A DNA stretch of 63,958 nucleotides, the filler included, from Circinaria calcarea (lineage: Eukaryota), in assembly GCA_051942165.1 (NCBI GenBank). It is 4 parts of 4 records of this genome, joined end to end, with 100 filler letters (N's around TTAATTAATTAA, not from the genome) between each part and the next. Parts side by side here need not be neighbours in the genome. Positions count along the whole stretch, not along the records: positions 16,349 to 32,574 come from JAVECS010000329.1; 3 more parts are not named here. One strand, 5' to 3'. The notes beneath the pieces were generated by a model. It saw nothing but the letters and a program-made list of their open reading frames with translations. It searched no databases and was not told the DNA's origin. Made by a program: the position numbers and the translations under genes. Positions 16,349 through 39,100 of this stretch are shown here, piece after piece; positions within the stretch are counted from its first letter, which is position 1, and each line of letters starts with the position of its first letter.

Positions 16349-16349
16349 G

Positions 16350-16412
16350 AACGGGGGTGAGAATGTGGTTGGGGAGGAGAGCACGCCCTTGCTGGAGAGG
16401 GAAGAGGAATAG
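16350..16412 (+). CDS. Possible 3' fragment of an unseen gene (NGGENVVGEESTPLLEREEE*)
   Basis: Open from the contig start to TAG at 16410-16412; contains an acidic dileucine-like motif ESTPLL; too short to confirm. Confidence 0.3.
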   Translation, partial: NGGENVVGEESTPLLEREEE

Positions 16413-17234
16413 ACTGGAGTAGAATCAAACGGAGTAGGGTGGTGGTTTGTCGTCTGTGGCATCATCTACTAGCGGGACCAATTGCATAAAAGGTGGTTCG
16501 GGAAAAAAAGAAATTGCTGGGCTACCCGGCGAACGGAAGAATAGGATTGCATGGAAGGAGCGGGTCGTTCTTATCGAAAAAAAGCCCCTCCTTTTTTTCC
16601 CCCCATCAGCCACGTTTTCGTCGGTCAAGTTTGTAATTATATATCAGGTCTTCCGTAGGAACCTTGGCGAGCAAGCAGCCAGCCAGTTAAGCTAGTTTTT
16701 TGTCTTTGGCTTTTTTTCTATAAGAGAAAAAAGAAAAAAATTCAAGGGACTTTGATTGAAGAGAGTGGAAGTAGAGGATTCTTTTTTTTTTTTTTGGGAA
16801 AACAACAAATCCATCACTCATAACATTTCATACCCCGTCTGGGATGTTCTTGTTCCCGTTCCGCAGTAGTAAGTAGTAGTAGAAGGGGGGGATCAGAATC
16901 AGAAATGACCCATTTTCATTTTTCCGAGAACCAAGAGATAGATTAGATGGAGCGATTAAGCTAATTCGCATATTCTAGCCCCCCTTCCGATCAGACTGTA
17001 TCGATGCGGGCACGTGTTGAGATTTGAAAAACAAGAAAGACAGGGGAGCAATCCGGTAGCCGATATCGAAGCAGACGCTGAGTTTGGCTAATCCATACCA
17101 GAATTCGCCATATAATGTGGTAGGAGTAAGGAAAAAGAAGCATAAACGAACGCTAGAAATGCTCGCTATCAATACATCATGGGAGAGAGAGAGGGCCATA
17201 CAAGAGGGGTTAAAAAGGACTCGTTCACAACTCG

Positions 17235-20200
17235 TTACACATTACCTGTTTCCATGCATCAGTCTACAAACCTCACCTCACAGACTGAAACGGAGGAAAA
17301 ACGGGCGCAGTCACAACATACCAATCACGACCATAAACCGCAGCTTGCCCTCCTTACTCCGCGCGCCCTCCTCATACCCCAAGATGCCATCATCCAGCAC
17401 CATATTACTGCTCTTCCAGCCCCAACTCTGGCTGAAATTGAACTTGTCCGGCGCGCTCTCATACACGCTGAGGATGCGGCCACCCTTGCTGGGCGTGTAA
17501 ATCTTAAAGTACGTCTTGATCGTCGGGCGGCCGTCGACGTAGGGAGGCAGAGCCGGGACCTTGAACCGCCGGCTCGAGTGGGCGAGGTCGTCGGGTTCTT
17601 CGTCCGTGTCGGGAGTGCTGACGCCATACTTGCGGTCGGGAAGGTTGGAAAGTGTGAGTGATCCGGGGCTTTGCGAGGCTTTCATGATGCCTTGACCTCG
17701 GAGCAGACCGCTAAAAGTGTTAGATCGTGGACGTTCGGAGGAGGAACCAGGGACAAGGGTAGCGTCTGGATCGCCCCCGGATCCCGAGTTCTCCTCCTCG
17801 GTCTCAATCCTACTCTGCCGGTTGCGGCTTCGTTCGTTGCTACGTGTCAGCAACTCGCGTTCCAGTTGTCCGATATGATCGTCCACCGAGACATGACTCG
17901 TAGCTGCCATTAGCTCTTCAGGACTTCCTTCCTTTTCTTTGGCTCGATGTAGATAAACTCCTAGCTGGGTGTTCTTCGTAGTCTCGACTTTTTGAACGTA
18001 AACATTCCAAAGACTCCCTGCATACCACACGGTCCGTGAATAAACACGTTTCTTTTCCTTTAGCTGCCTAAAAGTTGGGAACTCGGCAGCGAAGCGAAAA
18101 GGTGGATAATAGGTATATGAAATCGGTAAGTTTGATTCAGTGGGAGGAACACGGCTCGGTGTTTGTGGCCGATCATGAGTGGCAGACGCAAAGTCCGAAG
18201 CCCATTGTACGTCTTGTGGTTCAATCGTGGCCGAAAGTCGTGAGAGGTGACGGGTCGTGGAGGTGCGGATGCCATGAGCAGCAGCAATCATGTCTGGATT
18301 ACCGCCCATGATCGAGGTCGCATCGGCATTGGGAATCCAGAATTTACGAGGCTTTCCATTGCCGTCCCAGCTACCTGACTCCATTTCGTCCTCTTCATTC
18401 TCGTCCGTGTCTGATTCAATTTGCTTTCCTTTGTTCCCTCCAGTTACACCATCATTGTTGATGAGGCCTTGATCTTCGTGTGACTCCACTGAGTGTTCGT
18501 CCGATACCAAGCTTAGACCTAATTCCATGTCAAGCTCCTTTGCATTCACAATCTTCTGGCGTAACTCCATTGACATCCACAATGCATTGGAGATCACTTT
18601 TTCGGGCATAACGGGAACTCCTAGGACATCCCGCTGCTCACGTATTTTCTGGAGCTGCTCGAAGCTCAAATGGATGTAATGGATACCTTCATCGAGGAGA
18701 ACAAGAAGAGCCGCAATGTCAGGGCTCGTGTACAGACCAAGCCATGGATCCCACGATTCCGGAGTCCCACGTGAACCGAATATGGAACTCTTTCGATACA
18801 CCGTATCGAATCGAATTGCGTTGAAATTCATTGAATCGGGAGGTGCTCGTCTGGCTTTTCCATTTGAATCAACCAATCCTAGCTCCTGAGCATGTGTCTT
18901 CAACTTTCGATCCAAGACCCTTTTAGCAAGCACCCATCTCTCCCACTCTCCGTCGACATAGAAACCATCCCCACCGATGATCTCTCGAATGATATCACCT
19001 GGTATACCATCCCAATATCGAACGGGCATTTCCCAGCCTTCTCGACAGAGCATGGCTTTCGCAGAGTTTAGAATACGATCGCCCGGTTTGCCGTAATAGT
19101 TGCTGGTCACTAAGCGAATGCAACAAGACAGTTTGGCAGGACACATTTGCCGCAACAGCGACGTTACGCTTGCATCTATAAGGTCGGCCATTTCTAGCCA
19201 ACATCCTGTAGCGAATAGCCCGATGGCTTCCCGATCTTCCTCTGGTGCATAGTTGCAGCCATAGATACGCTTCAAGGCCAATTCGAAGGCCGACTGGGTG
19301 ATGTTTGAATCAATGTCCTCAGGATGCAAAGTGATTTCTTTTGACGAGCTTTCAAACCACGGCTCGGAGAGTGCGGACGAGAAAAATGGCGCTCGATCAA
19401 GTAAAAGACGATGAAGTGCGTACTTGACACCAAAAGCGTGCACCGTAATGTCCGAGTGTTTGCCCGACAGTAGACCTCGATTGTATAGGTGGTTTGGCAA
19501 CGGTGCGGTTTCTGATGTAGTCGCTATTGACGTTCTCAGTCATTTCCTCGCCCACCAGGCTTGAAACAAGACATACCTCTAGTGTAAGGGGTACCACTTG
19601 AGGCTCGGCCATAAGACGCATGCCTTGACATCGAAGGCGTCGCGGTTTCTGGAGCAGCAAACAGCCTGTTTAAAGTCGTAGGCGTGCTACTGCCTCGGTT
19701 TGCTGACAACCGTGAGTCTTCCACGGTATTCGATGGATCATCGACGTCCTTCTCAGCCCTCGGTATGCGGGTCTTTCGTGAGGAAGACGAGACTCCATCA
19801 TCTTGGTAGTGGACCGATCGCCGTGGTGTACTAAAGTTTGGAAGAACGATAGCTGATAGTGGAAGCGCAGAGTTGACAGGTGGCAGGCTACTCATGGACG
19901 CCTGGGCGGTGGAGACAGAGACGGAGGAGGTAGGAGGTCCTGATGAGAAGATGGACCGACTGGGTGTGTTGAAGAGCGTTGCCTGCTGCGCCGAGGTGCT
20001 TGGAGCAGCCAGGTCCAGTTCAGGCACTGACACCGAGCGAGAGTATTCCCGGCTGGAGACTCGTCGAGGGAATAAGGAAGGGGCGACGGAGGCTTCTGCG
20101 GCCGGCGTGGAAGGTTGGGTCCGTGAAGTCGGGAGGAAGCTCCATGATTGAGTTTGAACGGATGATAGCTGACTGGCGGTAGAGGCGGTCCCGTTCAGAT

Positions 20201-20273
20201 CAGCGAGGAGGTCATGCAAGGCATGTGATGAAACCTCCGACTCTTCGTTGTCTCCTTCTCCCTGGGTCGACAT
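17235..20273 (-). CDS. BTB/POZ-domain protein with C-terminal MATH/TRAF-like region
   Basis: Ser-rich exon 20273-19577, intron ~19524-19576; HSDITVHAFGVKYALHRLLL and FELALKRIYG (BTB); PPFRFAAEF, WYAGSLWNVY and FNFSQSWGW; last intron 17246-17321 gives LRFMVVIGNV*. Confidence 0.85.
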
Positions 20274-20994
20274 TGTGAAGAAGGCCGTGTGGCGTTGGAT
20301 CAGGAGGCTGGCTAGCTTTGCTCTGTGAAGCCCGAGGACCAGTGTTGTGCGGGGCCTGTTCTTACTGCCCTGAGGAGGTCATTGTACCATATGCCTACAG
20401 ACCTTAATAGGTCAGTTCATTTCGAGCTTGTATATGCCATTCCTCAAGACGTCGACGTCGATGGATAACTAACTTATCGTCGGCGGTGGGTCCCTATTCT
20501 ATTGGCATCGAAATGCCCCTCCGACGTCACTTCTGCCCTGCGCCTCCCAAAGGGTCCCATGCTCCTGTTCTCGGCACCGAGCCAAGTGCCAAGTACCAAC
20601 CACAGTACAGCTTCACCGTCTAATCTAAAGCCTTGAGCTTCCATGGCTAGCAGGTCCTGTAGGTACACTGTACAGGTGACGTGCTTTGGTTGCGATAGAC
20701 ATCAACCCCCCCCCTGCCCACCACCAGAAAGGTACTTTGCTTTTGCTTCACTGATAGAACCCATGCTTGCGATTGACCTCTCGGTCGTCTATCGCACAAT
20801 TCTTATGCGTGGAATCCATCCATACTACCACTGACTGGATCCAAAAGTTCTGATTGTGCAATTGACGGTTAGAAGGCCAAGCAATAGAAAGAGAAGTCTC
20901 GTGTTCGATTGATAGCAATATGTACAGTAAGCCTCCCCAATACATGAACCCTGCATGCGCGAAAACCCTCTGTTTATTCGTAACGATGATGTGA

Positions 20995-22720
<1,726 letters not shown>

Positions 22721-23149
22721 GAGGTTGAAGAAGCAATGGTACGAGTAAGCGACGTGGATTACGAACTTACCGGCCTAGCCCTACACTAGATACCTGGCTT
22801 TTAAGGTTAGAGAAATAAAGCGGTAATAAAACCACAAATAAGCAGTCGATCAAATAAGTTCTAGACTGAGACAAATGTAGACCATTAGATTCATATAGTA
22901 AGATTCGACGAACGAAACGGACCTTGACATACAGAGTATATGGCGGGCCACCGATGTCAGTAAAAGCATACTGAACCGTAACCATGCAAGCACGCACGTA
23001 TATACTATCTCTAAACCCAGCCCGGCATATCGAGATCTAAATGTAATACCGCCACAAGTTCGGAATCTGCCTGTATTTACAACAATGGCAAGCGGAAATT
23101 ACTCCCTGTTCCACCCACCGCCATGCTAATACAAATCAGGCCGAAAATG

Positions 23150-26021
23150 CTAGAGCTGACCGTGCCTCGCCTTGAAAATCGATACCTTGTCGTCGTAGAA
23201 CAGAATCTCCATCAGTTTGAGCTTTGGTCGTCTTCTCTCGCCTTCTAGGCCATCCTCATCGCCCTCCGAGGTGACATCGCTATCGTCAGCAACATCCGAG
23301 TCGTCTTCTTCCTGATCGCCAGACAAAGTGTTGGTGAGAGGGAATGTACCCTCGTCGTCGTCGTCATCGTCATCATCGTCGTCATCATCATCATCTTCGT
23401 CTGTATCACTATCCTCATCCGGATCTCCCATTCCAGCAGGAGAGATTGTGGAGGTGGAGCCCGAATCCATCGAGTCGTCCAAATTTCTATTTTCGAGGAC
23501 CTCGAAACATTTCTCCGAGATTCCCAGGTAGCATATTTCAATGTCGGGACGTAGTGTCACGATGTCAACTACTTGTAGTGCTAATTCCTTGGGCCATTGC
23601 GGAGAATCGTAGGGATGATCGAAAATATGAGGGATGTATAGAGAGCGGAGATGGGGTATCTGAGGGAGTCTCTGTAAGAAATAATGCTGTATATATTATC
23701 AGTCTCATACGTCCCGTCGTAGAGGAGGCAATTCGCTTACCCATTCCTTGAAACTCATTATCATTGCCAACTCTCGTAGGCGGGACATCTTTCCACTTGT
23801 GATAAATGTCAATACTTCTTTATTTAGAATCCACGTCTTCCCTTTGAGAAGGCCTGGACCTCCTTTCTGTTCTGTGCTATCAATCATCAACTTCGTCAAA
23901 CTCGAGCGATGACGTCGAAGCGGTCCACGGTAAATTGCGTCGAGAGTGACCTTTGAGCCCGAAGTGTTGCCGCCTTCCTGAAGAAACATCCACTCGAGGC
24001 TATTCGGAGCAAGAGCTTCCTTTAGGAAAGTTATAAGACCAGGTGTGACATTGTTGGTATGAATCTTCTTGAGCTTCAATCGATACTCTAATGGAGGCGC
24101 AGATGGGAAGTTTGACGAGGGAAGTTTGCGTGAGTGTGACTCGGGTGTACCCTCTATAGATTGAGTTGCTAAAGGAACGTTTATTGACTTTGAACGGGGA
24201 GAGTATGTACGTCTCAAAGCTTTCCAGAGCTCTTCGTCTGATTCGCAATTCAGTAGCGTAAGACTAGTCAGTACCGACCAGTCAATTGCTTTCTGCAGCA
24301 CCACGGTCTTAATAGGAACCCGTTCTAACTCTAGTGTCTCCAAGCTTAATTTTCTGGGCTTGGAGGGAGAGCTGACAAGTCTAGATGTCTCGAGCGAAGC
24401 TAAAGACTGCTCCTGTACAATATGTACTGTATCCTGAGACGCAATAGATTTTGAGTGGTCATGATGTTGGGGATTTGCTGGTATGTATGGTGCGGTACTG
24501 AATGGTAATTCCGATGCTTCAGACGCTTGCATCAAGACAATCAGATCGTTGACAACGGAAGGGGTTACCCCAATAGCGCTAGGTGGAGAGCGATGGGCCA
24601 GTTTGGAGGCAGGCACGTCGAGGCCGGGGATATGGTCATTTAGTAAGGACATTTCCGTTAAATGATCTGGACTTTCTTGAGGATCGACAAAATTAATCAA
24701 AACTGTATCATCTTGCAGCTCAGCTGTCCCCTCGGAGTCCGGCATCGTGGCTATAACCTCCAGGGCTCCTGATCCGCCTTGTTTAGTTGCTGACTGACTC
24801 CCTTGGACATTAGAACTCAGAGGATAGATCCGTCCGCGACAGTCATAGAATTCACTCATGATTAAACCAAGTATTCCGCCTGAATTCAAGTAACTCATCT
24901 TCGTGTCAATGTGGTTGAGACTTACGGTGGCATTTTGATCAGGGCTCGACCAGGCTTTTGCCAGCGGAACTGATGCTGTACCTACCCTAAGCTCGCGCAG
25001 GCGATCTTTTGAGCGTCCAACAAGTATAGAGAGCTCAACCAAATAAGCTGGTTCGTCAATATCCAAGACCGTAATACTCTTGAGCGGAGGAAGAATGGAT
25101 AAGTTGGGATGCTCAATACTCCGGTAGGACCTTTCCAGTAGGGTTGGAGGCTGATTCACGTTGTTCAGCGCTTGAACATCCAAAGGCGTACCTGTCAACG
25201 CAGGTTGAGAAACTGAAGCCAAATGAGGTACGCTAGCCTGCTCATGAACTCCAGATAGTGCAAGAATAGTATGATTGTTATGCCACCTGATCCATACTTT
25301 CTCAAGCTTTGATTCTTGACCGTTAGGACGATCTCCTAAGGATGAGAGGGCAATCCAAACGTCTCGGAGTATTCCAGTAGGCATATCCCACATGAACGTC
25401 TCGAGCTTCGACATTCGGGCGACTGCTAGTGCAACCAGTGTACCGAGCATTTTACCACTCTCCTTGGAAATATAATATTTTTTTACCCACTTTGATGGTC
25501 CATTCCCAAGAGAGAATTTTCGAGTGTATTGCGCAAAGTAATTACCCTTTCGCCTTCTGCACTGTGGCGTTCCCGTTTCGATTTTTACAAGCTTAGTGTT
25601 GGTCTCCCCACAGTGAACACAGGTGTAGGAGGCTGTTTCCGCTTGAACGTGGGCATGTGAATCCCCGAAGACGTCCATAGACATGACCAACGTTGAAAGT
25701 CCATACGTTAGCGCATCCACGCCACTGTGTGCCCCTCCCATAATTGGCCCATCGGGCCAAACGATATCGAATCTAGAATAGATGTAGGGGATTGCGAGAT
25801 TATGTAGAGCGGAGTGGGTTAATGCTAAAGACGTAAGATCGTTTGTATGGGTAACCTTGGTAATTGTTAGTTATTCTATCGTCAAGTAAATCGGGGACAG
25901 AACAAGCCTCCTGTATGATTAGTTGAAGCACATCGACCGGGAGGTCAAGTAGCTGGAGGGGCCTGTTTCTCTTCACGGCTGTGGGTTTTTCTTCGGCTTT
26001 ACTCGTTGACATCTTTGTCAT
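23150..26021 (-). CDS. F-box domain protein with acidic C-terminal tract
   Basis: LLDLPVDVLQLIIQE|VTHTNDLTSLAL F-box; ORF 23705-25741; intron from 23740 leading to HYFLQRLPQIPHLRSLYIP; poly-Asp tract; ends DKVSIFKARHGQL*. Start is 26021 or 26012. Confidence 0.82.
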
Positions 26022-26750
26022 CCTTTCAGCTGCGAAAAAGAGCTTGTACAGAATCCCCCACACCCCCAAACTTTATGTCTCAAGGTTGCACGGTGGTCGA
26101 GTTTGCTAGCAATGTAGGTTGAAAGAAACATGGGTAGCTCGTTCTCTCGACTGATCGAGGACCATGTGGTACCTAAGAACTAGAAGAACTCTGGACACCT
26201 AAAGAGCCCTTCAGCTTCACCTTTCGTGCTACTTTGAAGTATTTGGTGAGGTTGCTAGCACAGGATAGTTACAGAGTAGAGCGAGTTGATTTGACTACGA
26301 AGCTGACTGAAACAATTAAAGTTGCTGACTGGGATTCGGATAAGCGAGATGGTTCAGCTTTTGACTTAACTAGCTCAGCCCTGCCTAGCGGCGGGATGCT
26401 AGCTTGACACAGTCTTATTGTGGTACGTATCGAGGTTTTGAGGCTCTGCTATCTCCGTACGGAGTAACAATTAATCCAATCAAAAGCCACTACGCATGTT
26501 GACAAATTTACCTTCGGCATCATTTCTACGCCATATCACTCATAGACTCTCTTTGGAGCTCGATTAACGATCGAAGAGATTATGTAGAGTTCGACCTCCT
26601 CGATATCAACAAGATGGCCCAGACGTTTTGGCTCTCGCATTTTGCTCATGCCTGACTACCTTAATCATGGAAGCTCTGATGTCATAGGAGTAGAGCCCCT
26701 CAATATGTATTTGGGAGATATTTACCGAACATTTACTCCTCTGAGTAATA

Positions 26751-27721
26751 ATGGCTACCACTCCCAAAGGAAAACGCATTGTCTTCACCGGTGGCTCTGG
26801 CAAAGCAGGCCGCTATTGCATAGCCTATCTCCTTTCTCGCGGGCACAAAGTCCTCAATCTTGATCTGGTCCCTTTGCCGAGTCCAGACGTCTACACCCTC
26901 AAGACCGACCTGACAGATTCGGGCCAGGTTTTCAATGCCTTGAGCAGTCACTTCAACATGGAGGGCTATGTCGGTCCGCGCGTCGAGAAAGTTGACGTGG
27001 TCATTCACTTCGCCGCATATGCTCGAAACATGCTTGTGCCTGATAATGAGTGCTTCAAAGGGAACGTTCTCAGTACTTACAATGTTATCGAAGCTGCCTG
27101 TAAGCTTGGGATCAAGAAGATTATCATCGCCAGCTCAGAAACAACCTATGGAGGTATTCACAGCTCATAGTTCCACCATTCACGTCAGCTAATACCATCT
27201 CAGTCTGCTTTACCCAGTCGGACGCAGACTACCACTCCTTTCCATTAGAAGAAGACTACGACGTCGACCCTGAAGACACATATGCCACATCCAAACTTTG
27301 TGGTGAGCGCTGTGCTCGGAGTTTTGCCAGGCGATTCGGCGCGGATATTTACGCACTCCGGATTGGCAATGTGATTGAACCCCATGAATACGAACGCGAC
27401 TTCCCCAACTACATAAACAATCCTAGCAGCCGGAAGAGGAATGCGTGGAGCTATATCGATGCGCGCGACCTTGGCCAAATCTGCGACCTGTGCGTCAAAA
27501 AGGACGGACTGGGGTTTCAAGTATTCAATGCCACGAATGATACCATTACGACGAGAGTGCCGACTACAGAGTTCTTGAAAAAGGAGTGTCCTGGAGTACC
27601 GATCACCAGGGAGATGGGGGAATGGGAAGCGCCGTTGAGCAATCGTAAGATCAGGGAGGTTCTGGGGTATAAGGACGTACATAATTGGAGGAATTATGTG
27701 AGCCCTTCGCGATATAGTTAG
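26751..27721 (+). CDS. NAD-dependent epimerase/dehydratase (extended SDR)
   Basis: TGGSGKAG Rossmann motif, ASSETTYG, intron ~27154-27203, YATSK catalytic motif, WSYIDARD. Confidence 0.92.
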
Positions 27722-28565
27722 TTCGGTGCGAACAGTGAACGAGGTGGACGTGCTGGGCCCTGAGATGACCTGAAAACCTCCCACTCTGATATAAACCTAA
27801 AGTCCGTTGTAAAATAGACAATAGTAACAGCCTGACTGCACGGCAATTATGACACATACACCCACAGAATCACTTCTTAACCCAGATTTTCGACACAATG
27901 CCCTAATTCACTGTCTCCCTCGTTACCATATTGTTTTTTTAAATGAACCCCTATTAATACCTTGTATATCTCGCAATCTAAAATCCGTTTCTGTGTATTT
28001 CATGGTATTTATCGGTGTTGTGTGTCATATATTACAAGGGTATTATGGTATTCTTCATTATTCTTCTCTAAAACACCAGGGCGTTGTTCTCAATTAGGGG
28101 TTTCTTATTCGGCTATCCGATTCTCCGGAATTACAACCGAAAACGAATTGTTTTGGGCGGGGGGGGGAATTCCTTTATCATCCCTTTGTTCCGAGCTGCT
28201 TAGTACCCCAAGTATGGATTTTCAGAATCCCCGAGGAGGGGGAGTTCTTGGACGTGTGGGGAATAAAAAGGGAATCTATTCATCAACGGGATACTTGAGC
28301 AAAAGTTCTAGTTGCTAGGGAGTTTCTGTGGACTCGAGGAAGGACTTTACTATTTAGACGTGAGATTTAGGTAAGCGTTAGAGCTGCAATGGGATAGAGT
28401 GATCGTGTGCGGTTGACTGGTTAATTGTGCCAATCGTGCGTAGTTGATAAGGTACATCGAGATATTAGGAACAGCACCGCATGATTTTGAACTATTGCCC
28501 ACTTACCATAAAACTGCCAACTTAAAAAGGTCTCACACCATATGTGAAGGATGGAAACACAACCG

Positions 28566-29495
28566 TCAAGGAGGAGTAGCTGTACCCGAGGTCGTCGCAG
28601 CAACGACCGGAGTCCTCGGTGCATACCTCTGATAAAGACTGATCAACCGCGCCAGCGACTCCTTGGTCAAGCGCCCGATGATCTGGCAATGCGCCACGTA
28701 ATTCCGCGAAACTGGGTACGTGATTTGCGCCGTGCTGATGGGGGAGAACCAGTTTTCGGTGCTCTTCATGAACTCGGTGAGCAGGGGCTGGTGCTCGGTC
28801 AAGGGGTTGAAGTCCCCAGGGCGGCGGTGGTCCCTGATGGATACAAACTCCCACTTTTGCCTCTTCTGCTCGAGGCCCCGGCCGACGTGGGTGTAGAGAG
28901 GAATGGCGACGTAGTGGTTTTCGTACTGGCCGATAACGATCATGGGCCGTGATTTGGTGTAGATGAGCCCGAACTCTCGGCTCTTGGTTTCGAACTTGTT
29001 CAGCACGGGGAACTCCTGCCCCAGGTGTTGTTCGTGGAGGATGGCTTTAATGATGGTACCCGCCACGTATTCCTTCTTCATGTCTTCCGGGGTCTTCCGT
29101 GCTTCTTTCAGCACCAGGTGGGAGTTGCGTTGGTCCACGGGTAGCGAGATTTGTTTCATATAGCGATCCCCCGTTCCCGATCGGGGTCGAGGCGTGCTTA
29201 CAGGTTTGTATGCAATATTCGGCCGTTTCGATTGCGGCGACGGGTCTGGGGAAGGCAGGACGTTGCTCCGGCTTCGCTTCCGCTTGGTCTGGACCTCCTG
29301 GAATCCATCATCGTCGTCTTCTGGTTGAACAGGCGGTCTACCCCGATCGGATTCGGTCTGTGTCTGACCAGGTTTCGGGGTGGTCCCGGATTTTGTAGTC
29401 TTGTGAAGTGGGATGTCGGTCTCGATGGTATCAACCATTGCATCCGGATCGTCCGACTCATCCCAATCCTCCTTAATCTGACCTAATCTCTTCAT
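28566..29495 (-). CDS. Hypothetical protein: disordered N-terminus plus putative PemK/MazF-like (DUF6590-like) domain
   Basis: 309-aa open frame; basic patch KRKRSRS; domain motifs GTII, KSRPMIV, VAIPLYT and IGRL. An upstream exon cannot be excluded. Confidence 0.75.
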   Translation of the reverse strand: MKRLGQIKEDWDESDDPDAMVDTIETDIPLHKTTKSGTTPKPGQTQTESDRGRPPVQPEDDDDGFQEVQTKRKRSRSNVLPSPDPSPQSKRPNIAYKPVSTPRPRSGTGDRYMKQISLPVDQRNSHLVLKEARKTPEDMKKEYVAGTIIKAILHEQHLGQEFPVLNKFETKSREFGLIYTKSRPMIVIGQYENHYVAIPLYTHVGRGLEQKRQKWEFVSIRDHRRPGDFNPLTEHQPLLTEFMKSTENWFSPISTAQITYPVSRNYVAHCQIIGRLTKESLARLISLYQRYAPRTPVVAATTSGTATPP

Positions 29496-32229
29496 CCTCG
29501 AGAAAGTTGGATGTTCGAATTCGTAAGACGTAAAATAGTATACCTGATCTTTGATCTAGCTGATTCTCGCCGATGGGCAAATCGTAAGAGTGACAATGCG
29601 AGCTTTTGGGAGGGCACGATATGAACCGAATTTACCGCTTTAAGGACCTTTGATCCAATGAACCCGCTTTGTTTCGCTGTACGTTATCGCGTCCACCACA
29701 GAATGTCTGTTCTCGGATTAGGCTCTTTTTGGTGTCTCTGTCGTCGTCAGGAAATCAATGAAGAAGTAAGTCACGAACCCTTAGTTAGGTTAGAGGTTTC
29801 TTTTCCTGACTATAGCGTTTGAGTTTTCTAATTACGAAAATGTTTGCCTGTACAAGTTATTGTAAGCGACGAATTCTCTTATTGTTAGTCCTTTGTGAAG
29901 TGGCTTGCCACGGTAAGAGATACAAAGTATAATATGGTCCAAAGATTACCGACTATAAAATGCTGTACATACGATGACTTGTAAGATAGTCGCTGAGTTA
30001 CGGTTAGGGAGTCAGAGCAAAGAGTTACCAAAAGCATGGGAATTAAGGGAATGTTCAATGCGGGCTTAGCGCTCGTGAGACACAGCAGACCAGCTGAGCT
30101 CGAATAATGCTGTCAATGCAGAACGAACTGCCACCTCCTGTGCAAAGATGTCAAGATGATGAAAGAATGGAAGACGAAACTATGTGGTGGTAAAGGAGCA
30201 CTCATCGCCTCAGTATATTATTGGGATTGAGAACTAGGTCCGCAGTCAGTACATGTTACATGCGCCATGGAGCAGAACAGACTCCAATCATGGCTGACCG
30301 AAGCATGATCATGTAGGAACATAAGGTGACCAGTGTTTGCCCTACCGTCCCCATCGCAGGTTAAATTGCGAACGAGATTATGGAAGGGGCTCAGAGGCAC
30401 AAAGCTCGAGTAACGAGTCCATGAAGTAACTCGGATTTTCTATGAAGTAGCTCGACGTTTTCATGAAGTAGCAGACTTGTACTGTAGATCAGCAGAATGA
30501 AAGCAGGCCGGGAAATTAAGGCTGGGCACAAAGAGAATGTAAAGAATGAGTGGGAAGGCATCAAATCAACCTGGACTCTGCTCCCTTAGAGAGAACTATC
30601 TGAAGACACCAGACTCTTGGAACCAGTCAATTGTTTGATGAAGGGAGTAACAACCATGGAAATCCAAGAACATATTGCACAGATGTCCCATTGCAGGACG
30701 AAGAGCTAAATGCCCGCATCACCAGCCTAACAAGCTTTTTTCATGGTGACTGAGTCGAAGCTCAACTTTGACTGATACTCTCATAAAAACAGTGGAACAG
30801 TAGACATGGGCTTTACCGCGAAAGATGCCTCGTTCCGGAGGAGACACAGGAGGATGGAAAGTTTCTCAAGCTAAACAATTTCCGTATCGGCATCAGCGTT
30901 GTAACACCCGACCTAAACCTACATAGGTAAGGTGGTCTCTATCAGCTTCTATCTAAAAATAAACACGCTGCTCGGTTTACCAGTACTCATGACCATTGAG
31001 TAATTCGACATCCGTCTTCTTGTACGACCATCTCCTCGCCACAATCTGACAACCGCCCCCACCTCGAGCTGCAGCCTCGTTACCCTCTCACCTATTCCTC
31101 GTCAAATTCTTCTCGTCCTTTCACCTTACCTATTGTCGTCAATTTCAGATGAGCTTGGTATATCTAACCATCTCGAGGCTTTACTCATCCGCGTCGATTT
31201 TACATCTACTTTACTCTTTGCTCCTCTCATAAGCCGCCAAGAATCCAAGAACATCCCGCTGCCTCTTTCGCCTTCTCTCCAGAATGCTACCCTTTCATTC
31301 AGCCCCAGCGGGTCCTCGTTCCACTCGGAGCGCTGCACTGTAAAGTCAAGTGGAAGAGCCCCACCGCTAGGACGGAGGATGACACTTTTATGGAGTTCGC
31401 GGCGGCAAGAATACAGTAAGCTTCAGCCCGCTGTGAACCGCTGACTCACAGCGTGGGACGAATCCTTTTACTTGTGCGCTCGTCTTAAAATATTATTTTG
31501 AAGCTATATGTTATCACGTGCATGGCGGTTTGTGGTTGCATATCCATTCAGGTCAGATGTGAGGCCAGCTTTGGGGAAGCGAACAGCCCTCTTAAGGATT
31601 ATTCCTCTCGGCATCCTTCGGGGATGTAGCAGCTGAACCATAGCCAAGGACTGTGGGAGGCGGTTAAAATATTTTAAGCAAAGTGTGTATTGGGACACAA
31701 ACCGTTTCTAAGCGCAGTGGCGTTTTGGAGGCCGGAGTGCGTATTAACGGGATAGAAAGTTATCGGTGAATGACCCATTACTGTCACGTTTCTACTCGAG
31801 ATGGTGCTCACTTAACCTCCAAAGGGCGAACACCGGCGAAGATACTGAACAGAAGCAGGCGGGATGGTTTTATGAAACCTTATACTCTCTTGCTGTCTCT
31901 CTAAGAGTCTAATCAGTACGTGGTACAAGCGCGAGCCATGCGTTTCTAGTGGATAGCTGCTTATTGTGGCTGTAACCGGGTGCGTGTCTTTTGACTAATC
32001 GGCTTCTATAGGTAGGTAGGCTTTCATTCCTAGAGTAAGCCGCTGAAGCTCAACCTTCGTATTTTTACTCGGAGTTGCAATAATGGTGGTCAGCAAGTCG
32101 AAATGCACCGTATCCTGGCCTCGTCATCCTCTCTCATCATAACATGCACTGCAGTTACCTAATTGCCCCTGAGCTGAGTGTATTACAGCTGATGTCATAT
32201 GCTTGTATGCTTGATAAGAAGATGATGTG

Positions 32230-32236
32230 TATATAA
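32230..32236 (+). promoter_or_regulatory. TATA box candidate for the haloperoxidase gene
   Basis: TATATAA about 110 bp upstream of the ATG at 32347. Confidence 0.45.
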
Positions 32237-32346
32237 GGACAAGTGAAGTCGCTGCACTCTTCTTAACTTATATTCAATTCGATACAGACAGAGGCATTCA
32301 TCAAAGAAACGAAAAGACTGTATAGCGTTCATTTTACTTCTAAATT

Positions 32347-32574
32347 ATGGTTGTCCTTCCTCCAACAGGCGAGCCGCCTGAGTATAACTCCAACTACATA
32401 CTCTATTGGAACAACCTTGCCCTCGATCTCAACCGCCTTACAGTATCGCTGTCCAACGGACCTAATAATGGCCCAGCGTCTGCCTCACGGGCACTCGGTA
32501 TACTACATCTGGCCATCAACGACGCCTACTTTGCGATCCACCCTGATGAAAGCGGAACAGCTACTACCTATTTG
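32347..32574 (+). CDS. Vanadium chloroperoxidase, N-terminal 76 aa (cut by contig end)
   Basis: EPPEYNSNYILYWN...GP...SRALGILHLAINDAYF closely resembles the Curvularia inaequalis VCPO N-terminus as I recall it (EPEEYNTNYILFWN...ARALGMLHLAIHDAYF). Confidence 0.88.
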
Positions 32575-32674
32575 NNNNNNNNNNNNNNNNNNNNNNNNNN
32601 NNNNNNNNNNNNNNNNNNTTAATTAATTAANNNNNNNNNNNNNNNNNNNNNNNNNNNNNNNNNNNNNNNNNNNN
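32575..32674. other. Artificial contig linker
   Basis: N44-TTAATTAATTAA-N44. Confidence 0.97.
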
Positions 32675-32790
32675 GTTACATAGGGTGTAGTTGAACTGTT
32701 GCCCTAGGCTCAATAGTATGGAGTCTATTGAACACGGTCTATAAGCATGCTATTCTAAAGAGCGGGAATAGCCTGCTATATATAATGCTC

Positions 32791-32903
32791 TGCTCACCCT
32801 GCTCACCCTGCTCACCTCCATGAGCACCATGAGCACACCGAGCACCCTGCTCACCCTGCTCACCCTGCTCACCTCCATGAGCACCATGAGCACCATGAGC
32901 ACC
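32791..32903. repeat. Compound minisatellite: two ~57-bp units of 9-bp TGCTCACCC and ATGAGCACC monomers
   Basis: Units start at 32791 and 32848. Confidence 0.9.
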
Positions 32904-33185
32904 TCGGTGGTGGAGGTTCCCCCGACCCGTGGTCCTTCCCAACTGGGTCTAGTGCATGTCATGGCGGGCACGCCATAACAACTGAACAAGAAGCTTAGGC
33001 CAATCCAAACAGCGAAAGTTTGTATTTGTGGGACAGCATGATGTAAATCGAAAATAGAAACGATATAGCACCATATTCCCCCTTATATCTGCTCGGATCA
33101 ATCCCTTTGTCTTTCCCCGACGCTCGTTTTCCCATTCTTACAGCTGCAAATACGAACAGCGTCATCTAGCTCACCCGCCAAGATT

Positions 33186-36100
33186 TTAAGAAACGATGCC
33201 AGATCGATAGCGACTCTTCCCCGCAGCAAGCGCACTCAGCGCCACAACGCTCCCACTCTCCAAGATGTCGACGACAGTAATCTCGGCCTTAACCTCCGTG
33301 GCGAACCAATACCGGATCTCCACCGCCACCAATGAGTCGATTCCAAAGCTGTGCAGCGGCTTGTTGGCATCAATGTCTTCGAGCGGGAGGGAGAGGAATT
33401 TTGAGAGCCGGTAGATCAGCGCTTGATAGACGGTTTCCTCAAGCGCCTCCGGGGAGCCAGCGGAGCGGAACAGGGCTTTAAAATCGACGGAGTTGTCTTG
33501 GTCGTCTTCGGGGGTATCGCTTTTCCGGCTATCCATGTAAGCGAGGTTCCGGAAAAGAGGCGTATGCATCCAGAAAGGTTCGCCGTAGCCTTTTGATTTC
33601 AGGGAGGCGGGCGTGTCGATTCCGGTGACGACTTGGCTTTTCGACGCTGATTGGATCGGGAGGTTCGGGTCGCAGTAGTAGTCTAGGATGGCGTGGAGCT
33701 CCGGTTCTCGCATCTTCATATAGCCTGCCGTCGCTACGGATGCTGCCGTGGTCTCCTCGTTCTCTGCCACGTAGCCGATTGAATGGATCCTGCCAAGGTC
33801 GAGAGAGACCGCTTTCTGCCCAAAGCTGGCCCGGTAATGAGCGAGTGCGTCTTGATAGGTATTCCCGCAGGCATAATTGGCTTGGCCGCGGTTCCCTGTC
33901 ACGCCTGCCATGGACGAGAGAAGGATGAAGAAATCCATGTCTTGAGGGAGCTGAGTGTGCAGGTTCCAAGAGCCGTGGACTTTGGGGGCTAGCACGGTCT
34001 TGAAATCGTCTAAAGAAAGGTTCTCAAAGATACCATCCTAAACTCATTAGCCAGGTGATAATCACGCTAAATATAACATTACGTGGCTTACCTTCAGCAC
34101 CATAGATCCTTGAACGCAACCTTTTATAGGTGGCATGTACTTTGCACAACTATCCAAGACCAGCGATAAGGAGTTCGGGTTGCTCACATCACATGAAGGA
34201 GCTGCAATCACAATCCCTTCATCTTTCATCTCGTTCACTAGCTCGATAGCGGCCTCACTCTTGCTGCCTGAACGAGAAAGGAGTATAAGGTTCTTTGCGC
34301 CTCGGCGGACCATCCAACGAGCAATACTTCTGCCAAGCCCACCAAGCCCGCCTGCGATGACATAGGTTGCGTGTTGATCGAAAGTGTACGTTGATGCGGT
34401 ATCGGGCTCAACCTATAGCGAAGACATATTAAATTGACAGGATCGGTACGCAGGAGATTGTGGTCCAACTTGCCGGCACCACGTCATCGTCGTGCATTTC
34501 AATGACGGTTTTCCCGGTGTTTTTCCCGCCCTGCAGATATCGGAAAGCTTCTAAGAATTGGCTGCTGGGGTAGACGTGTAGTGGGTGTGGAGCTAGACCG
34601 TCAACTCAAATCTTGATCAGAGAACAAAAGATGAACTGTATTTGCATCATGAGAGGAAAGTCTTACTAGTGATCTTTTTGTTCTCAAACAGACCCATCAC
34701 AGTTCTCATTAGTTTGCCCAGAAGAGATATGTTGTCTCGCGCAATGAGAGCAAGGTCGAGAGAAGCAAAGATGACGTTTCTGGAGAATGGAAACATCGGC
34801 AGGGTTTTGTGTGAATAGATGTCACGTTTCCCAATCTCTATAAATCTCCCAAAATTCCCGACACATTCCCAAGAGTTCCTGAGACCTTCGCCAGCAAGGG
34901 AATTGAGCACAACGTCAACTCCACGGTTCTTTGTCATCCTTTTGATACCTTGGGCAAACGACTCGTTTCTGCTGGAGAAGATGTGATCTTCCGGGATATC
35001 ATAAAGCTGCATAACTAGCTTCTTCTTCTCTTCAGTTCCAACGGTAGTATAGATCTCCGCATGGAGAAGTTTGGATAGCTGGATAGCTGCCTGGCCAACA
35101 CCTCCTGCTCCACAATGAATCAGGATTGATTCACCGCTTCTTATTCTGGCAATGTTAAAGAGAGCATGGTAAGCTGTGCAATATATAGTCTGGAAGGAAG
35201 CCGCGGCGGAGAAGGGAAGGTCATCTGGGATTTTGACGACGTTTTCGGCTTTGGTGCGCACATGGGTCTTGTACGTCCCATGGCCAAAACAACAAACTCG
35301 GTCTCCCGGCTGGAATTTGTGGTTAACCTCTTTTCCTACTCGGGTTATGGTCCCGGCGCATTCTCCCCCAAGATAGTCGCTCGCAACTTGACCTAAAGCA
35401 ATCATCACGTCAATAAAATTGACACCACTAGCCTTAACTTTGACTTCAACCTCATTAGCCGCTAGAGGTTGCTTGAATTCAGGGTCGTCAACGAAGCGTA
35501 AAGTATCAAGGAGACCAGGACAACCAACGATCAGCTTCAATGACCGCGTAGATTCCCGTCCAAACTCTTGAAGTTCCGGATGCGGAGGCGCTGTCGAGGA
35601 GAATATCTTTTGATCCAGGTAGTTGGCCTGAACGAGGCGGCTAATCTGTAGGAGCCCGCCTTGCTCGCAATACTCTCGTTCAATATGATCTTGCCGAGGT
35701 TTGATTGTGGCAGCGATTATCTTCAACACAGCATCGACTACTTCCGAGGTCCGAAGCACATTTTCAAGCGCTACAGTAACAAATTTGAAATGGCTGATTT
35801 CCGAGGAAACGCATCTGGAAAGACCGTGAACAAGGCCAAACTCGGGTTTCATTCTAGCATTCGAATCCTTCGGTGTCGTCCAAAGAATTCCCATAGCAGA
35901 AGCGATCATTCTCTGAAGATTTGAATATTCATCCTCGTTTAGATTAAGAAGATATGGTTCCTCAAGCTCAGGTAGGAAGATGCAGAAAGCCTGCTGATAG
36001 TCTGTCAGAGCCAAATCCCGAGGATCCATGACATCGCAAGTCGATACGTTTAGCAGTCTCAATTTGTGCTCTAGCTGTGAGGCAATACTACGCTGCAACG

Positions 36101-39100
36101 GAGAACTGTCTGCAGCGATGATTTTGATTTTCGGTAAATCTAAAGGAGGATTGGTAGGTCTCAGGGCTGTGGATATGATGAGACTGCCGAGATGGTTGCA
36201 AGGATCTTTGTAGTCTCGAAGGGAAATATCTGCTCCTGAATATCCAGCATTGGACAGGGTCTCATGCCAGTCTTCTTCCGTTAAGAGAGGTCCCCATTGC
36301 CGGTTATGCTCGATACCTAATAAACTCATTAATACTGCAGAAACCGCAAGAATAGCAAATACTTACTAAGCCACCATCCAGGTAGTAGGCCAAAAGCAAA
36401 GCCAGCCCGAACGACTGCAGGGTTGCAGCTCTCAATCAGGACGAGTTTACCCCCCCTATATGTATTAGTATTGAAATATCCTACTATTTTGAGAAATCAC
36501 GTTCACTTACGGCTTTAGTAGTTTACGGGTATTCTCCAATGTTACGCTCAGGTTCGCTGTGGCATGAAGTACCTGACACAAACAAACATTAGCAAATAGC
36601 TTTCAGGAAAAGATATTGCATACGTTGGCGGCCACTATTACATCATACCCTCCGGCCTTATATCCCTGCTCGAGAGGGTCTTTTTCTATATCCAACGTCT
36701 TGAATGTCATTCGATCGCTATATTCTTGAAATCGTTCTTGTGCCTTTTCAAAGAATGCTGGAGAAATATCGGTGAAAGAATATTCAGAGTACTTCGGTGC
36801 AACAGGTTTTCCTTCTCGATAAGTCAAAGACCGTAAGACCGGTGCAGTCGAACCCCCCGTTCCTGCCCCAATCTCTAATATTTTCAGATTTGGGTCCTTA
36901 TGAGTGAGTAAGTCTAGGTAGACTGTAAGCCTTTGATAGTTGGGATCTTGATCGCTCATATGGCGATAAAAATTTTCTGCGAGATTTCCGTTAAACAGAA
37001 GTGCAAGGGCGTCGACTTCTCCATGGAGGATAGCGGTAAGGCTCCTTCCAACTGCCACAATAAGCCTCCCTTCCGGGTTACTATGCTCCACGCGATGAAA
37101 TAGGTCCTTCTGGAAGTCTTCGTTACCCATCAGCTCATTCCACTGTAGCTGATCATGTGGTAACTCTCCAAGACTGAATCTCTCAATTTGGCGCTTCATC
37201 CATTGGTGATACCTCTGAAGATGGGGCTTTGCGGTCATCATCCTTTCCGGTGATATTTCTGCCAAGGTCTTTGCAATAAACAGAAAACAAGTAAATTCTA
37301 GGTCTTCAAGAATCTTGTCATCATTGAGAGTAGAGCCATTCGTGCCAGCCATGCAGTATTCTGAAATCTGTTGATTATCTAACAGATCAAGCTCTGGTTT
37401 CCAATCTATGTTATAGCAAAGATGTCGGCGCTTGTCCTGAGAGGATGACATCACATCCAGATTAGCCAAGGCTGTTAATTGAAATCCTTTTATAATGATC
37501 CGAGGCTCATCAGTAATATTATCTAAAGCCATGATAGTTGATTCTACCTGATTAAACCCGTGGAATTTGGAAGTTGTCGAGATTTTGACGCAATCGTTAA
37601 CGGACCGGCGGCTGCTGATGCTACTCGATATCCAAAAATCCTGGATCCTCGTTGGTAGCGTAGGTGGAATCAGCTCTCTTGCTCCCTTTGTTAGAGCTAC
37701 CCCAGTAATCTGAAGGACGCCATCTAGCGCCGTAGGGTGAATAAGGTGCTCCTGAACTTGACATTTCGGTACTTTGGTGGTCCACTCAGAGAGTTTAACG
37801 AGAGCCGTCGCCTCGTTCTCATCGTTGCAGGAGATATCATGAAGGGTTTGAAAAGTTGGGCCAAAGCTGTAGCTGGAGTTTTCGAGGACTTCGTATAGCT
37901 GGTTAGTGCTCACTGCTCTCCTGCAGAGGCTCGAACAGGTCTCAAACACTCGTTTAGATGCTATAAGTTCCTCAGTCGCCTCCCTACCGTTATCCACTTC
38001 AATCTCAGCTTCTGCATAGTCCACACCTACAACACCGTAGCAGTTTTCGACCCATTCTTCGTTCTGGTAGGAACAGAGCCGAAACTCGCTCCACTCAGAA
38101 GATTTATTATTCTCACCTCTGCGTGAGCGCAGATAAAAGTTCGTTTCCACACCGAGGTCGGTTGAAGGTATTATCAACGCTTTGTGGAAGGTGGTATCCT
38201 TGATTCGGTACCCTCTCACAATCCGCTTTGGGTCCACGAGCTGACGTTGAGCTTCTATCGCCATAACGAGCATCCCGGAAGCGGGATACAGTTGAGAGTC
38301 GTTAACCTGCAACTTGTTAGTGGGATACCAAAAGAGAAGCTAATCTTTACCTTATGATCTTTAACCCATGGGCTCTCAGAAACCTTGATGAAGTTACGCC
38401 ATCTGGCTTCGAGTTGATTCCAATCGATGGCGGCGGTGCCAAGGAGCTCGTGTCGAGGATATTTACGAAATCTGAAATTTGAGCTCAAGCGGCTTTCGAG
38501 CCAGTATGTCTGCGAGTGATTGAAAGGATATTCCGGGAGATCAACCAGCATTTGAATATCTGTCATTTTACCGCTCAGATTGTTCACCCTATTAACATCC
38601 ACCTTATAACCTCTGCAATACAAATCACCAGCCATTTCCATCGACGTTTGCAAAGCAGATACGCCCCGTATAAGAACCGAGCTGTATTGAATACTTTTAC
38701 TTAACCGAATCTGTTTGAGTACATCACTGACAGGACGGCGCAGCGTACTATGAGGACCAACTTCGAGTAGGTGATCGATTTGAACGTTTTGAAACCCTTT
38801 TTGGAGGGGTTGCGAGCACATTTTCATTAGCGCATTTGAAAATCGAACTGGTGAGATTAGATTCCGTACCCAATACTCGGCTCGACAAAGCTCATCAGCT
38901 GAAACCTCATCACACGATACCGACGAGAACATTGTAGTAGATTCCGATCTACTTGCAAGGATGCATCCGGAGGCTATATCTTGTATGGAAGCTGCATACT
39001 CTGCTGCAATACTCTGCATGTATATCGAATGATATGCAACATCCACCTTGAGTTTGGCGGAAAAGACCTTTTCTCGGTCCATGCTTACTTTTAAAGCGTC

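Follow-up and report, generated by a model that had tools for sequence, protein, structure and literature searches.

The stretch of DNA analysed here (hereafter the window) comprises 63,958 nucleotides of the Circinaria calcarea assembly GCA_051942165.1, joined from parts of four records, of which JAVECS010000329.1 supplies positions 16,349 to 32,574. The gene at 28566-29495 on the minus strand encodes a 309-residue protein, designated P0001, whose identical sequence is present among NCBI-derived protein records. P0001 belongs to the fungal family DUF6590, its C-terminal domain is predicted to resemble the MazF, Kid and CcdB toxins, and relatives of the gene on metagenome contigs are accompanied by a conserved, divergent neighbour encoding a very acidic protein. 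The features of the gene and its two flanking genes are collected in Table 1.

Table 1. Features of the DUF6590 gene and its flanking genes, in window coordinates (aa, amino acids; pLDDT, predicted local distance difference test; NLS, nuclear localisation signal)
Feature	Protein position	Window position	Strand	Basis or remark
DUF6590 protein gene (P0001)		28566-29495	minus	single-exon coding sequence, 309 codons plus stop
Disordered N-terminal extension	aa 1-110	29166-29495	minus	full-length AlphaFold2 model: pLDDT 44-62, no secondary structure
Acidic run	aa 9-27	29415-29471	minus	within N-terminal extension
Acidic run	aa 59-63	29307-29321	minus	within N-terminal extension
DDGFQEV motif	aa 62-68	within 29166-29495	minus	N-terminal extension
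NLS-like KRKRSRS	aa 71-77	29265-29285	minus	within N-terminal extension
Predicted helical lead-in beside the barrel, YMKQISLPVDQRN...	aa 111-142	29070-29165	minus	pLDDT 82-87
Predicted MazF/Kid/CcdB-type beta-barrel with C-terminal helix, predicted homodimer	aa 143-292	28620-29069	minus	AlphaFold2, VIA-align, Foldseek
E155 codon, part of the HE motif that closes beta1, aligned with MazF E24, in predicted dimer interface	aa 155	29031-29033	minus	E in 116/146 relatives (15 gaps)
R183 codon, putative counterpart of MazF R29	aa 183	28947-28949	minus	R in 145/146 relatives; aligned in profile alignment
T202 codon, Thr/Ser right after strand beta3, aligns with MazF T53	aa 202	28890-28892	minus	T in 120 and S in 25 of 146 relatives
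NAD-dependent epimerase/dehydratase gene		26745-27721	plus	convergent 3' neighbour; two open reading frame pieces, probably one short intron
Vanadium chloroperoxidase gene, N-terminal part		32344-32574	plus	divergent 5' neighbour, 2.85 kb off; VCPO_N E 2.2e-30

Pfam recognises a single family in P0001, DUF6590 (PF20233; E 4.5e-10; 40.2 bits, cut-off 27), over aa 141-285 and profile positions 2-151 of 152, and no other Pfam family matches at E<=10. This agrees with the original prediction, which describes similar fungal proteins as annotated only as DUF6590 or hypothetical; DUF6590 is a family without assigned function. Searched against 1.84 billion cluster representatives, aa 125-309 retrieves 439 clusters (50% identity) with E<=0.001, of which 233 reach E<=1e-10 and 5 reach E<=1e-30; a word-indexed search returned just 4 relatives. 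All 112 aligned relatives match the DUF6590 model and share no recurrent second Pfam domain, and no longer fused forms were seen among 155 candidates, which is weak evidence. The common architecture is a C-terminal domain preceded by an N-terminal extension of 0-288 aa (median 108). Neighbours in the ESM Atlas are DUF6590 or unnamed clusters labelled Ascomycota, with one Basidiomycota set (score 0.91). In the literature library searched, no paper names DUF6590 or PF20233.

Modelled by AlphaFold2 without templates on the 112-sequence alignment, aa 125-309 form a run of beta-strands closed by a C-terminal helix, with a pLDDT of 90.8 and a predicted template modelling score (pTM) of 0.84. When this model was compared by VIA-align with 48,161 representative PDB chains, the best 50 being listed, 11 chains reached Z>=8, and every one of them is MazF, Kid, CcdB or a Mycobacterium tuberculosis toxin (Z 9.0-11.3; root-mean-square deviation, rmsd, 2.2-3.2 A; 89-107 residues aligned of chains 94-118 long). 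The top match is 7ewi_C (Z 11.3, rmsd 2.2 A, 102 of 111 residues), and the set includes Kid 1m1f_A (Z 10.7) and CcdB 1vub_A (Z 9.1, 90 of 95 residues). Below these toxins lie the type III toxin CptN (Z 7.8), generic Tudor and SH3 barrels (Z at most 6.4), and ToxN and AbiQ (Z 5.4-5.6). Foldseek gave no match to the PDB at E<=0.001; all 31 of the matches listed are toxins of toxin-antitoxin systems, nearly all titled MazF (probability 0.89-1.00; template modelling score by target length 0.34-0.67), the best being 8zws_B (E 4.2e-3, probability 1.00). On these models the C-terminal domain has, with high confidence, the MazF/CcdB fold, and the original prediction's proposal of a MazF/PemK-like C-terminal domain is supported at the level of the fold. 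The retropepsin-like aspartic protease domain is very improbable as an identity for DUF6590: no retropepsin occurs among the best 50 of the 48,161 chains or the 31 Foldseek matches listed (though absence from such lists does not disprove the fold), the 146 aligned relatives conserve no D-T/S-G triplet, their invariant Asp being D222 within D-H-R, and none of the 112 relatives matches a retroviral protease family at E<=10.

The domain is also predicted to dimerise. Two copies of aa 125-309 gave, over three runs, an ipSAE of 0.80 against 0.00 for the best control, a mark that 21 of 30 solved homodimers and none of 23 solved monomers attain; the pass may reflect the model's memory of MazF dimers. 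At least 81% of contacts recur between the runs, which have a partner pLDDT of at least 78 and place a symmetric interface along the C-terminal helix, the strand at aa 259-269, aa 188-196 and the loop at aa 165-182, with H154/E155 and E216 included. As modelled, the DUF6590 domain probably forms a MazF-like homodimer.

Residue conservation was counted over 146 aligned relatives, after 7 of 153 had been dropped as fragments of fewer than 130 aa, and P0001 agrees with the consensus at each of the 13 columns conserved in at least 90% of them. The four strings on which the original prediction drew are present in the order it gave, YVAGTIIKA at aa 143-151, TKSRPMIVIG at aa 180-189, YVAIPLYT at aa 195-202 and IIGRLTKESLARLISLY at aa 272-288. 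Their match to the MazF motifs is looser than it had proposed: the Gly of G-D is kept as G146 but the D position holds M or T, P-x-T has become P-x-x-T, the Arg of RP is retained but its proline is mostly lost, and within IGxL only G274 and L276 are conserved. Besides the three residues given in Table 1, conserved positions comprise G146 (129 of 146), H154 (103), G176 (132), K181 (128), P199 (140), G274 (142), L276 (133) and L284 (135), together with H203 (126), G207 (145), E216 (136), S219 (136), D222 (144), R224 (139), R264 (131) and Y266 (131).

For comparison at the level of sequence profiles, a broad PemK profile of 62 sequences was built from 44 diverse PemK genes of bacterial genomes plus MazF/ChpB relatives. 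Aligned with it by hhalign, the family gives one collinear alignment in which aa 142-298 correspond to MazF 1-111 (score 18.3, P 0.02); this score was reached by 0 of 100 column-shuffled profiles (mean 11.5, standard deviation 2.0, maximum 17.5), and the reversed profile scored 10.1. In this low-confidence alignment, G146 pairs with G10 of E. coli MazF, E155 with E24, R183 with R29, P199 with P50, Y/F201 with T52, T/S202 with T53 and G274 with G92, and the PemK columns hold E in 57, R in 55, P30 in 61, T52 in 60 and G92 in 51 of the 62 sequences. R29 and T52 are the catalytic residues of E. coli MazF, and conservation of the Arg and Thr had been named by the original prediction as a check on its proposal: the Arg is near-invariant at the position of R29, and a Thr or Ser is just as constant (145 of 146) but stands one residue off T52. 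Against a single PemK protein (L101), hhalign aligned the family in another register (E 0.19).

Cross-matches between families point the same way. In 121 bacterial genomes, nothing exceeds the cut-off of the Pfam DUF6590 model, and 17 of the genomes contain sub-threshold matches; 3 of the 17 fall in frame within PemK genes (G063:C65, the best, at E 6.7e-4 and 19.8 bits; G040:C129; G064:C1), each matching the C-terminal thirds of the DUF6590 and PemK models to one another. Conversely, when the 44 PemK proteins were compared with 24,736 Pfam models, DUF6590 was matched by 2 of them (E 2.8e-4 and 0.016) and CcdB likewise by 2 (E 4.4e-4 and 0.016), so that DUF6590 appears about as distant from PemK as CcdB is; five other families were matched once each (E 0.022-0.19). 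A bacterial PemK/MazF cluster also appears at rank 16 in the ESM Atlas (score 0.88), which serves as a lead only. Our own DUF6590 hidden Markov model (HMM), made from close relatives, placed 10 PemK open reading frames (ORFs) among the 25 best of 580 (44 of them PemK), and we give this ranking no weight because all scores were at most 3.1 bits. Overall, the profiles show a weak but specific sequence link to the PemK/CcdB superfamily, and the likeness goes beyond chance, to judge by the fold searches and the profile controls.

We consider it likely that DUF6590 shares ancestry with PemK and CcdB, and a database-level link of PF20233 to the CcdB/PemK clan may already exist. Alternatively, DUF6590 would have originated separately in fungi, serve an unrelated function and have converged on a small SH3/Tudor-like barrel. 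No standard sequence search passes its threshold, and Tudor and SH3 barrels do occur in the fold list at Z 5-6.4, as convergence would allow; yet the structural match spans nearly the whole MazF chain, C-terminal helix included, and lies at least 2.6 Z above the generic barrels, the Pfam cross-matches fall in frame inside PemK genes at a rate equal to that of CcdB, and the hhalign score exceeds 100 of 100 shuffles. Convergence is accordingly improbable.

What is new in this analysis is a conserved divergent acidic partner of DUF6590 relatives, often duplicated in tandem. Metagenome contigs scanned with the back-translated consensus PLYTHNGxGL yielded 27 loci, 25 of them with DUF6590 ORFs; 41 such ORFs cover at least 100 model positions and form 11 clusters at 90% identity or more. 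A homologous ORF lies upstream on the opposite strand in 11 of 11 clusters and for each of the 38 ORFs whose upstream sequence extends to 2 kb or more, its stop-to-stop frame starting 320-960 bp upstream of the DUF6590 ORF in head-to-head arrangement. Among the ORFs listed, the partner is 363-613 aa long, with 18-22% Asp plus Glu and a net charge of -28 to -75, and has a coiled-coil-like middle and conserved end motifs, with a W...SVGMS motif at the C-terminus. No Pfam family matches at E<=0.01 in 12 partner ORFs, at E<=10 only weak coiled-coil-type matches occur in 5 ORFs, no PDB sequence matches at E<=1, and the Atlas neighbours are unnamed Ascomycota clusters. The original prediction saw no antitoxin gene; this holds for the window but misses the head-to-head acidic partner found in every cluster of relatives.

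Divergence among the pairs is deep. Between pairs, DUF6590 proteins are 33-67% identical and partners 20-43%, and the two identities are positively correlated (Spearman 0.59; 44 of 45 comparisons used, one being dropped as its partners were unalignable), a correlation that shows only inheritance as a unit because the comparisons are not independent. Tandem pairs, two or three per contig and in the same orientation, occur at L137:7733-14486, L147:7730-15341, L148:5690-13667 and L139:2857-8318, and the tandem copies are old, with DUF6590 ORFs 42-51% and partners 27-31% identical within a locus. One copy in L148 (12687-13667) is interrupted by a stop or an intron.

Further genes stand beside some of these pairs. 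A NACHT/NPHP3_N-ankyrin gene of the NOD-like receptor (NLR) type adjoins the DUF6590-partner pair at L147:4166-7267 (plus strand) and at L139:8691-11654 (minus strand), with some 460 bp in L147 separating the end of the NLR-type ORF from the DUF6590 gene's 3' end; such a position may hint at an immune-type neighbourhood or be a coincidence. The microbial ribonuclease family PF00545 is weakly matched (E 6.3e-5; 23.9 bits, cut-off 24), quite possibly by chance, at L146:9788-10681 (minus strand), some 1.5 kb away from a DUF6590 gene.

Orthologues of the window's epimerase gene lie at L154:485-1423 and L145:14458-15387 (85-87% amino-acid and 72-73% nucleotide identity), about 6 kb from DUF6590-partner pairs. 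The DUF6590 genes of L145 and L154 are inverted relative to the window gene and just 42-47% identical to it, and the neighbourhood is thus related but rearranged, which suggests a rearranged, fast-changing spot beside a conserved epimerase gene. The window epimerase seems to carry an intron of about 50 nt that is missing from the L154 orthologue.

The acidic N-terminus of P0001 is a trait of its own lineage. Its disorder, its acidic runs and the KRKRSRS string are as the original prediction described, but the disordered part spans about 110 aa rather than about 135, because aa 111-142 are predicted to be helical (helices at aa 115-117, 120-122, 125-131 and 136-142). A LP..[ED]R[DN] motif in this lead-in is common to 10 of 66 relatives, and the extension motifs DGF..V, PPS.AA and LP..[ED]R[DN] as a set occur in 9-16 of the 66 against 0-1 in reversed controls. 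By regular expression, the D-D-G-F/Y motif is found in the extensions of 16 of 66 relatives and once in the reversed control; a motif of the same type also stands in a conserved block of the partner (dd.DdGY), for example at L154:9236-10738. No overall similarity of the extension to the partner was detected when the partner HMM was run against 153 DUF6590 proteins (best E 0.066; P0001 7.5), and the extension as a fused piece of the partner was set aside.

The same prediction had proposed the acidic N-terminus as a possible cis inhibitor, and here the family speaks against it. The domain start is resolved in 118 of 153 proteins, and in 104 of these the extension reaches 40 aa or more; these extensions are net positive in 101 of 104 cases (median +8.5), acidic runs occur in 15, and the extension of P0001 is the second most acidic, followed by that of its 92% relative P0002. 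Since an acidic extension is confined to few relatives, acidic cis inhibition cannot be the family mechanism. In P0001 itself the acidic runs are undocked in the full-length model, where aa 1-110 stay at low pLDDT, and a docked cis inhibitor was rejected as a candidate, which is no evidence against binding as such.

On balance, we favour the reading that P0001 is a diverged homologue of the CcdB/MazF(PemK)/Kid toxins, an RNA-binding or RNA-cutting dimer whose relatives are paired with an acidic partner, the window copy being solo. Its parts differ in strength: a function directed at RNA is fairly probable, actual endoribonuclease activity has close to an even chance, and a role of the partner as inhibitor is tentative. 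Under this reading, the predicted dimer would bind single-stranded RNA in a groove lined by R183, K181, E155 and T/S202; cutting would most likely be metal-free as in MazF, by attack of the 2'-OH leaving a 2',3'-cyclic phosphate; and the basic, disordered N-terminus with KRKRSRS may aid RNA binding or nuclear targeting. In relatives, the gene would form a two-gene unit with the acidic coiled-coil protein as an antitoxin-like neutraliser or regulator; the window copy is a solo gene without that partner and with an unusually acidic N-terminus of its own.

Several results weigh against this reading. At E<=10, PemK_toxin (PF02452; cut-off 23.1 bits) matches neither P0001 nor any of 112 relatives; searches against PDB sequences reached a best E of 1.1 with phmmer and 0 matches at E<=10 with a profile; for a narrow, E. 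coli-like MazF profile, hhalign yields a probability below 1% and inconsistent local alignments; and the probability of the collinear alignment with the broad profile is 2.3%. At the level of residues, the column of MazF T52 holds Y in 89 and F in 54 of 146 relatives, with the conserved T/S202 following one residue later, and P184, the proline of the MazF R-P, is present in just 25, K standing there in 66. H203, G207, E216, S219, D222, R224, R264 and Y266 are family-specific and near-invariant without a MazF counterpart; this block (H203...R224, R264, Y266) sits in inserts absent from MazF. Such residues could serve a different activity or simply form the dimer interface, since several of them fall in the predicted one. 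As to the partner, 24 of the 27 loci come from one record series, so that the paired loci, found by one motif-based scan, may sample few organisms; and the 64-kb window holds no homologue of the partner (best E 0.089 by tblastn and 1.9 by HMM), for which reason the pair model is not directly applicable to the P0001 copy. Finally, CcdB has the same fold, is not an RNase and binds gyrase.

This last point, together with several of the others, leads to the main rival, in which DUF6590 is a true MazF/CcdB-superfamily homologue without nuclease activity: a dimeric binding module for an RNA, DNA or protein target, for example a scaffold or regulator acting together with the acidic coiled-coil partner of relatives, with CcdB and gyrase as the parallel. 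The fold shared with CcdB at Z 9.1, the Y or F in the catalytic Thr column with the lost R-P proline, and the many invariant residues beyond the MazF signature are all consistent with it, and the persistence of solo P0001 without a partner is easier to understand if the protein is non-toxic. A mere scaffold would not, however, need the strictness seen at the MazF signature positions (R183 and T/S202 each in 145 of 146, and E155 at the place of E24), and most branches of the superfamily, namely MazF, Kid, ChpB and the type III toxins ToxN, AbiQ and CptN, are RNases. We regard the non-nuclease rival as somewhat unlikely.

A bolder extension of the RNA-directed reading is that DUF6590 and its divergent acidic coiled-coil neighbour constitute a chromosomal, eukaryotic toxin-antitoxin-like or immune module of filamentous fungi, a MazF-fold RNase kept inactive by the acidic protein, that multiplies as a unit. 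The pairs may have a conflict or defence role, and within the module proposal solo copies would have swapped the partner for an acidic tail of their own or become tamed; taken jointly, these propositions seem unlikely.

The surroundings of the gene in the window agree with the original description. The haloperoxidase divergent from the gene is real, and its reading frame is broken by the scaffold gap at 32576-32675 after the first ~77 codons. The gap consists of two N runs flanking a linker ttaattaatta, and low-complexity His/Glu-rich repeats follow at about 32740-33000. The stretch toward the haloperoxidase is indeed gene-poor, its 2.85 kb holding no Pfam-recognisable ORF among 24 scanned, and the 3' flank has none among 3 (best E over all 27, 0.022); the window contains a single DUF6590 copy. 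Past the gap, 3.7 kb upstream of the DUF6590 gene, 33186-38339 and beyond (minus strand) encode a highly reducing polyketide synthase with ketoreductase (KR), SdgA-type acyl carrier protein (ACP), enoylreductase-like and methyltransferase-like stretches, and an old-yellow-enzyme-type oxidoreductase lies at 21400-22387 (plus strand). With these two genes nearby, the DUF6590 gene stands at the edge of a possible secondary-metabolite cluster. On the minus strand, 23150-25870 hold a long ORF of 721 aa without a Pfam family and then an ORF with an Asp/Glu run of about 20 residues.

As for transcription, one metatranscriptome run contains 0.05 of the sampled words. Its contigs show 23 differences and 3 gaps in 172 bases against 28429-28600, and 9 differences in 221 bases against 28621-28841, third-codon positions accounting for 4 of the 5 differences listed for the second. 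These two short contigs derive from a relative and are no proof that the P0001 gene is transcribed.

To our knowledge, MazF, Kid and CcdB toxins are regarded as peculiar to prokaryotes and plasmids. Our literature search, with subscription journals outside its coverage, found nothing relevant joining MazF, PemK or CcdB with fungi, Ascomycota or eukaryotes. A survey of 2008 reports no toxin meeting all its criteria in eukaryotic genomes and lists only Doc/Fic-like and ParE-like matches (PMC2446400). A large fungal family (439 clusters) with a predicted MazF fold and the signature Arg would give DUF6590 a testable function and would lengthen the list of bacterial conflict modules found in eukaryotes. 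The co-duplicating acidic partner offers a simple two-gene system, for which the solo window copy is a natural control. Should the module proposal hold, fungi would possess a first native MazF-type system of eukaryotes, which might act in mycovirus defence, allorecognition or cell death.

Among known systems, CcdB (PF01845; 1vub) has the same superfamily fold and a distance to PemK like that of DUF6590; it targets DNA gyrase rather than RNA and has no Arg/Thr signature of the kind kept in DUF6590. The type III toxins ToxN, AbiQ and CptN have a Kid-like fold and match more weakly (Z 5.4-7.8), are RNases by their PDB entry titles, and are neutralised by repeat RNA; no repeats of this kind were seen beside the P0001 gene, though no search aimed at them was made.

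The closest comparison is with MazF, PemK(Kid) and ChpB (PF02452; PDB 7ewi, 8zws, 1m1f, 5cr2), which have the same barrel and C-terminal helix (Z 10.3-11.3). Unlike these toxins, DUF6590 is eukaryotic (Ascomycota and, by Atlas labels, some Basidiomycota), falls below the PF02452 threshold, has Y or F in the Thr column and has lost the R-P proline; its domain exceeds theirs by about 40 residues, has inserts behind beta1 and beta3 with invariant residues of their own, and is fused to a disordered, mostly basic N-terminus of 60-290 aa. MazE and PemI are small AbrB- or ribbon-helix-helix (RHH)-type proteins encoded in an operon with the toxin; the relatives' partner is instead an acidic coiled-coil protein of 363-613 aa encoded divergently, and the P0001 copy has no homologue of that partner in the 64-kb window and, by Pfam, no MazE/PemI-type gene among 27 flanking ORFs. 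Like MazF, DUF6590 is predicted to be a homodimer with counterparts of G10, E24, R29, P50, T53 and G92, and its relatives have the gene for an acidic partner next door.

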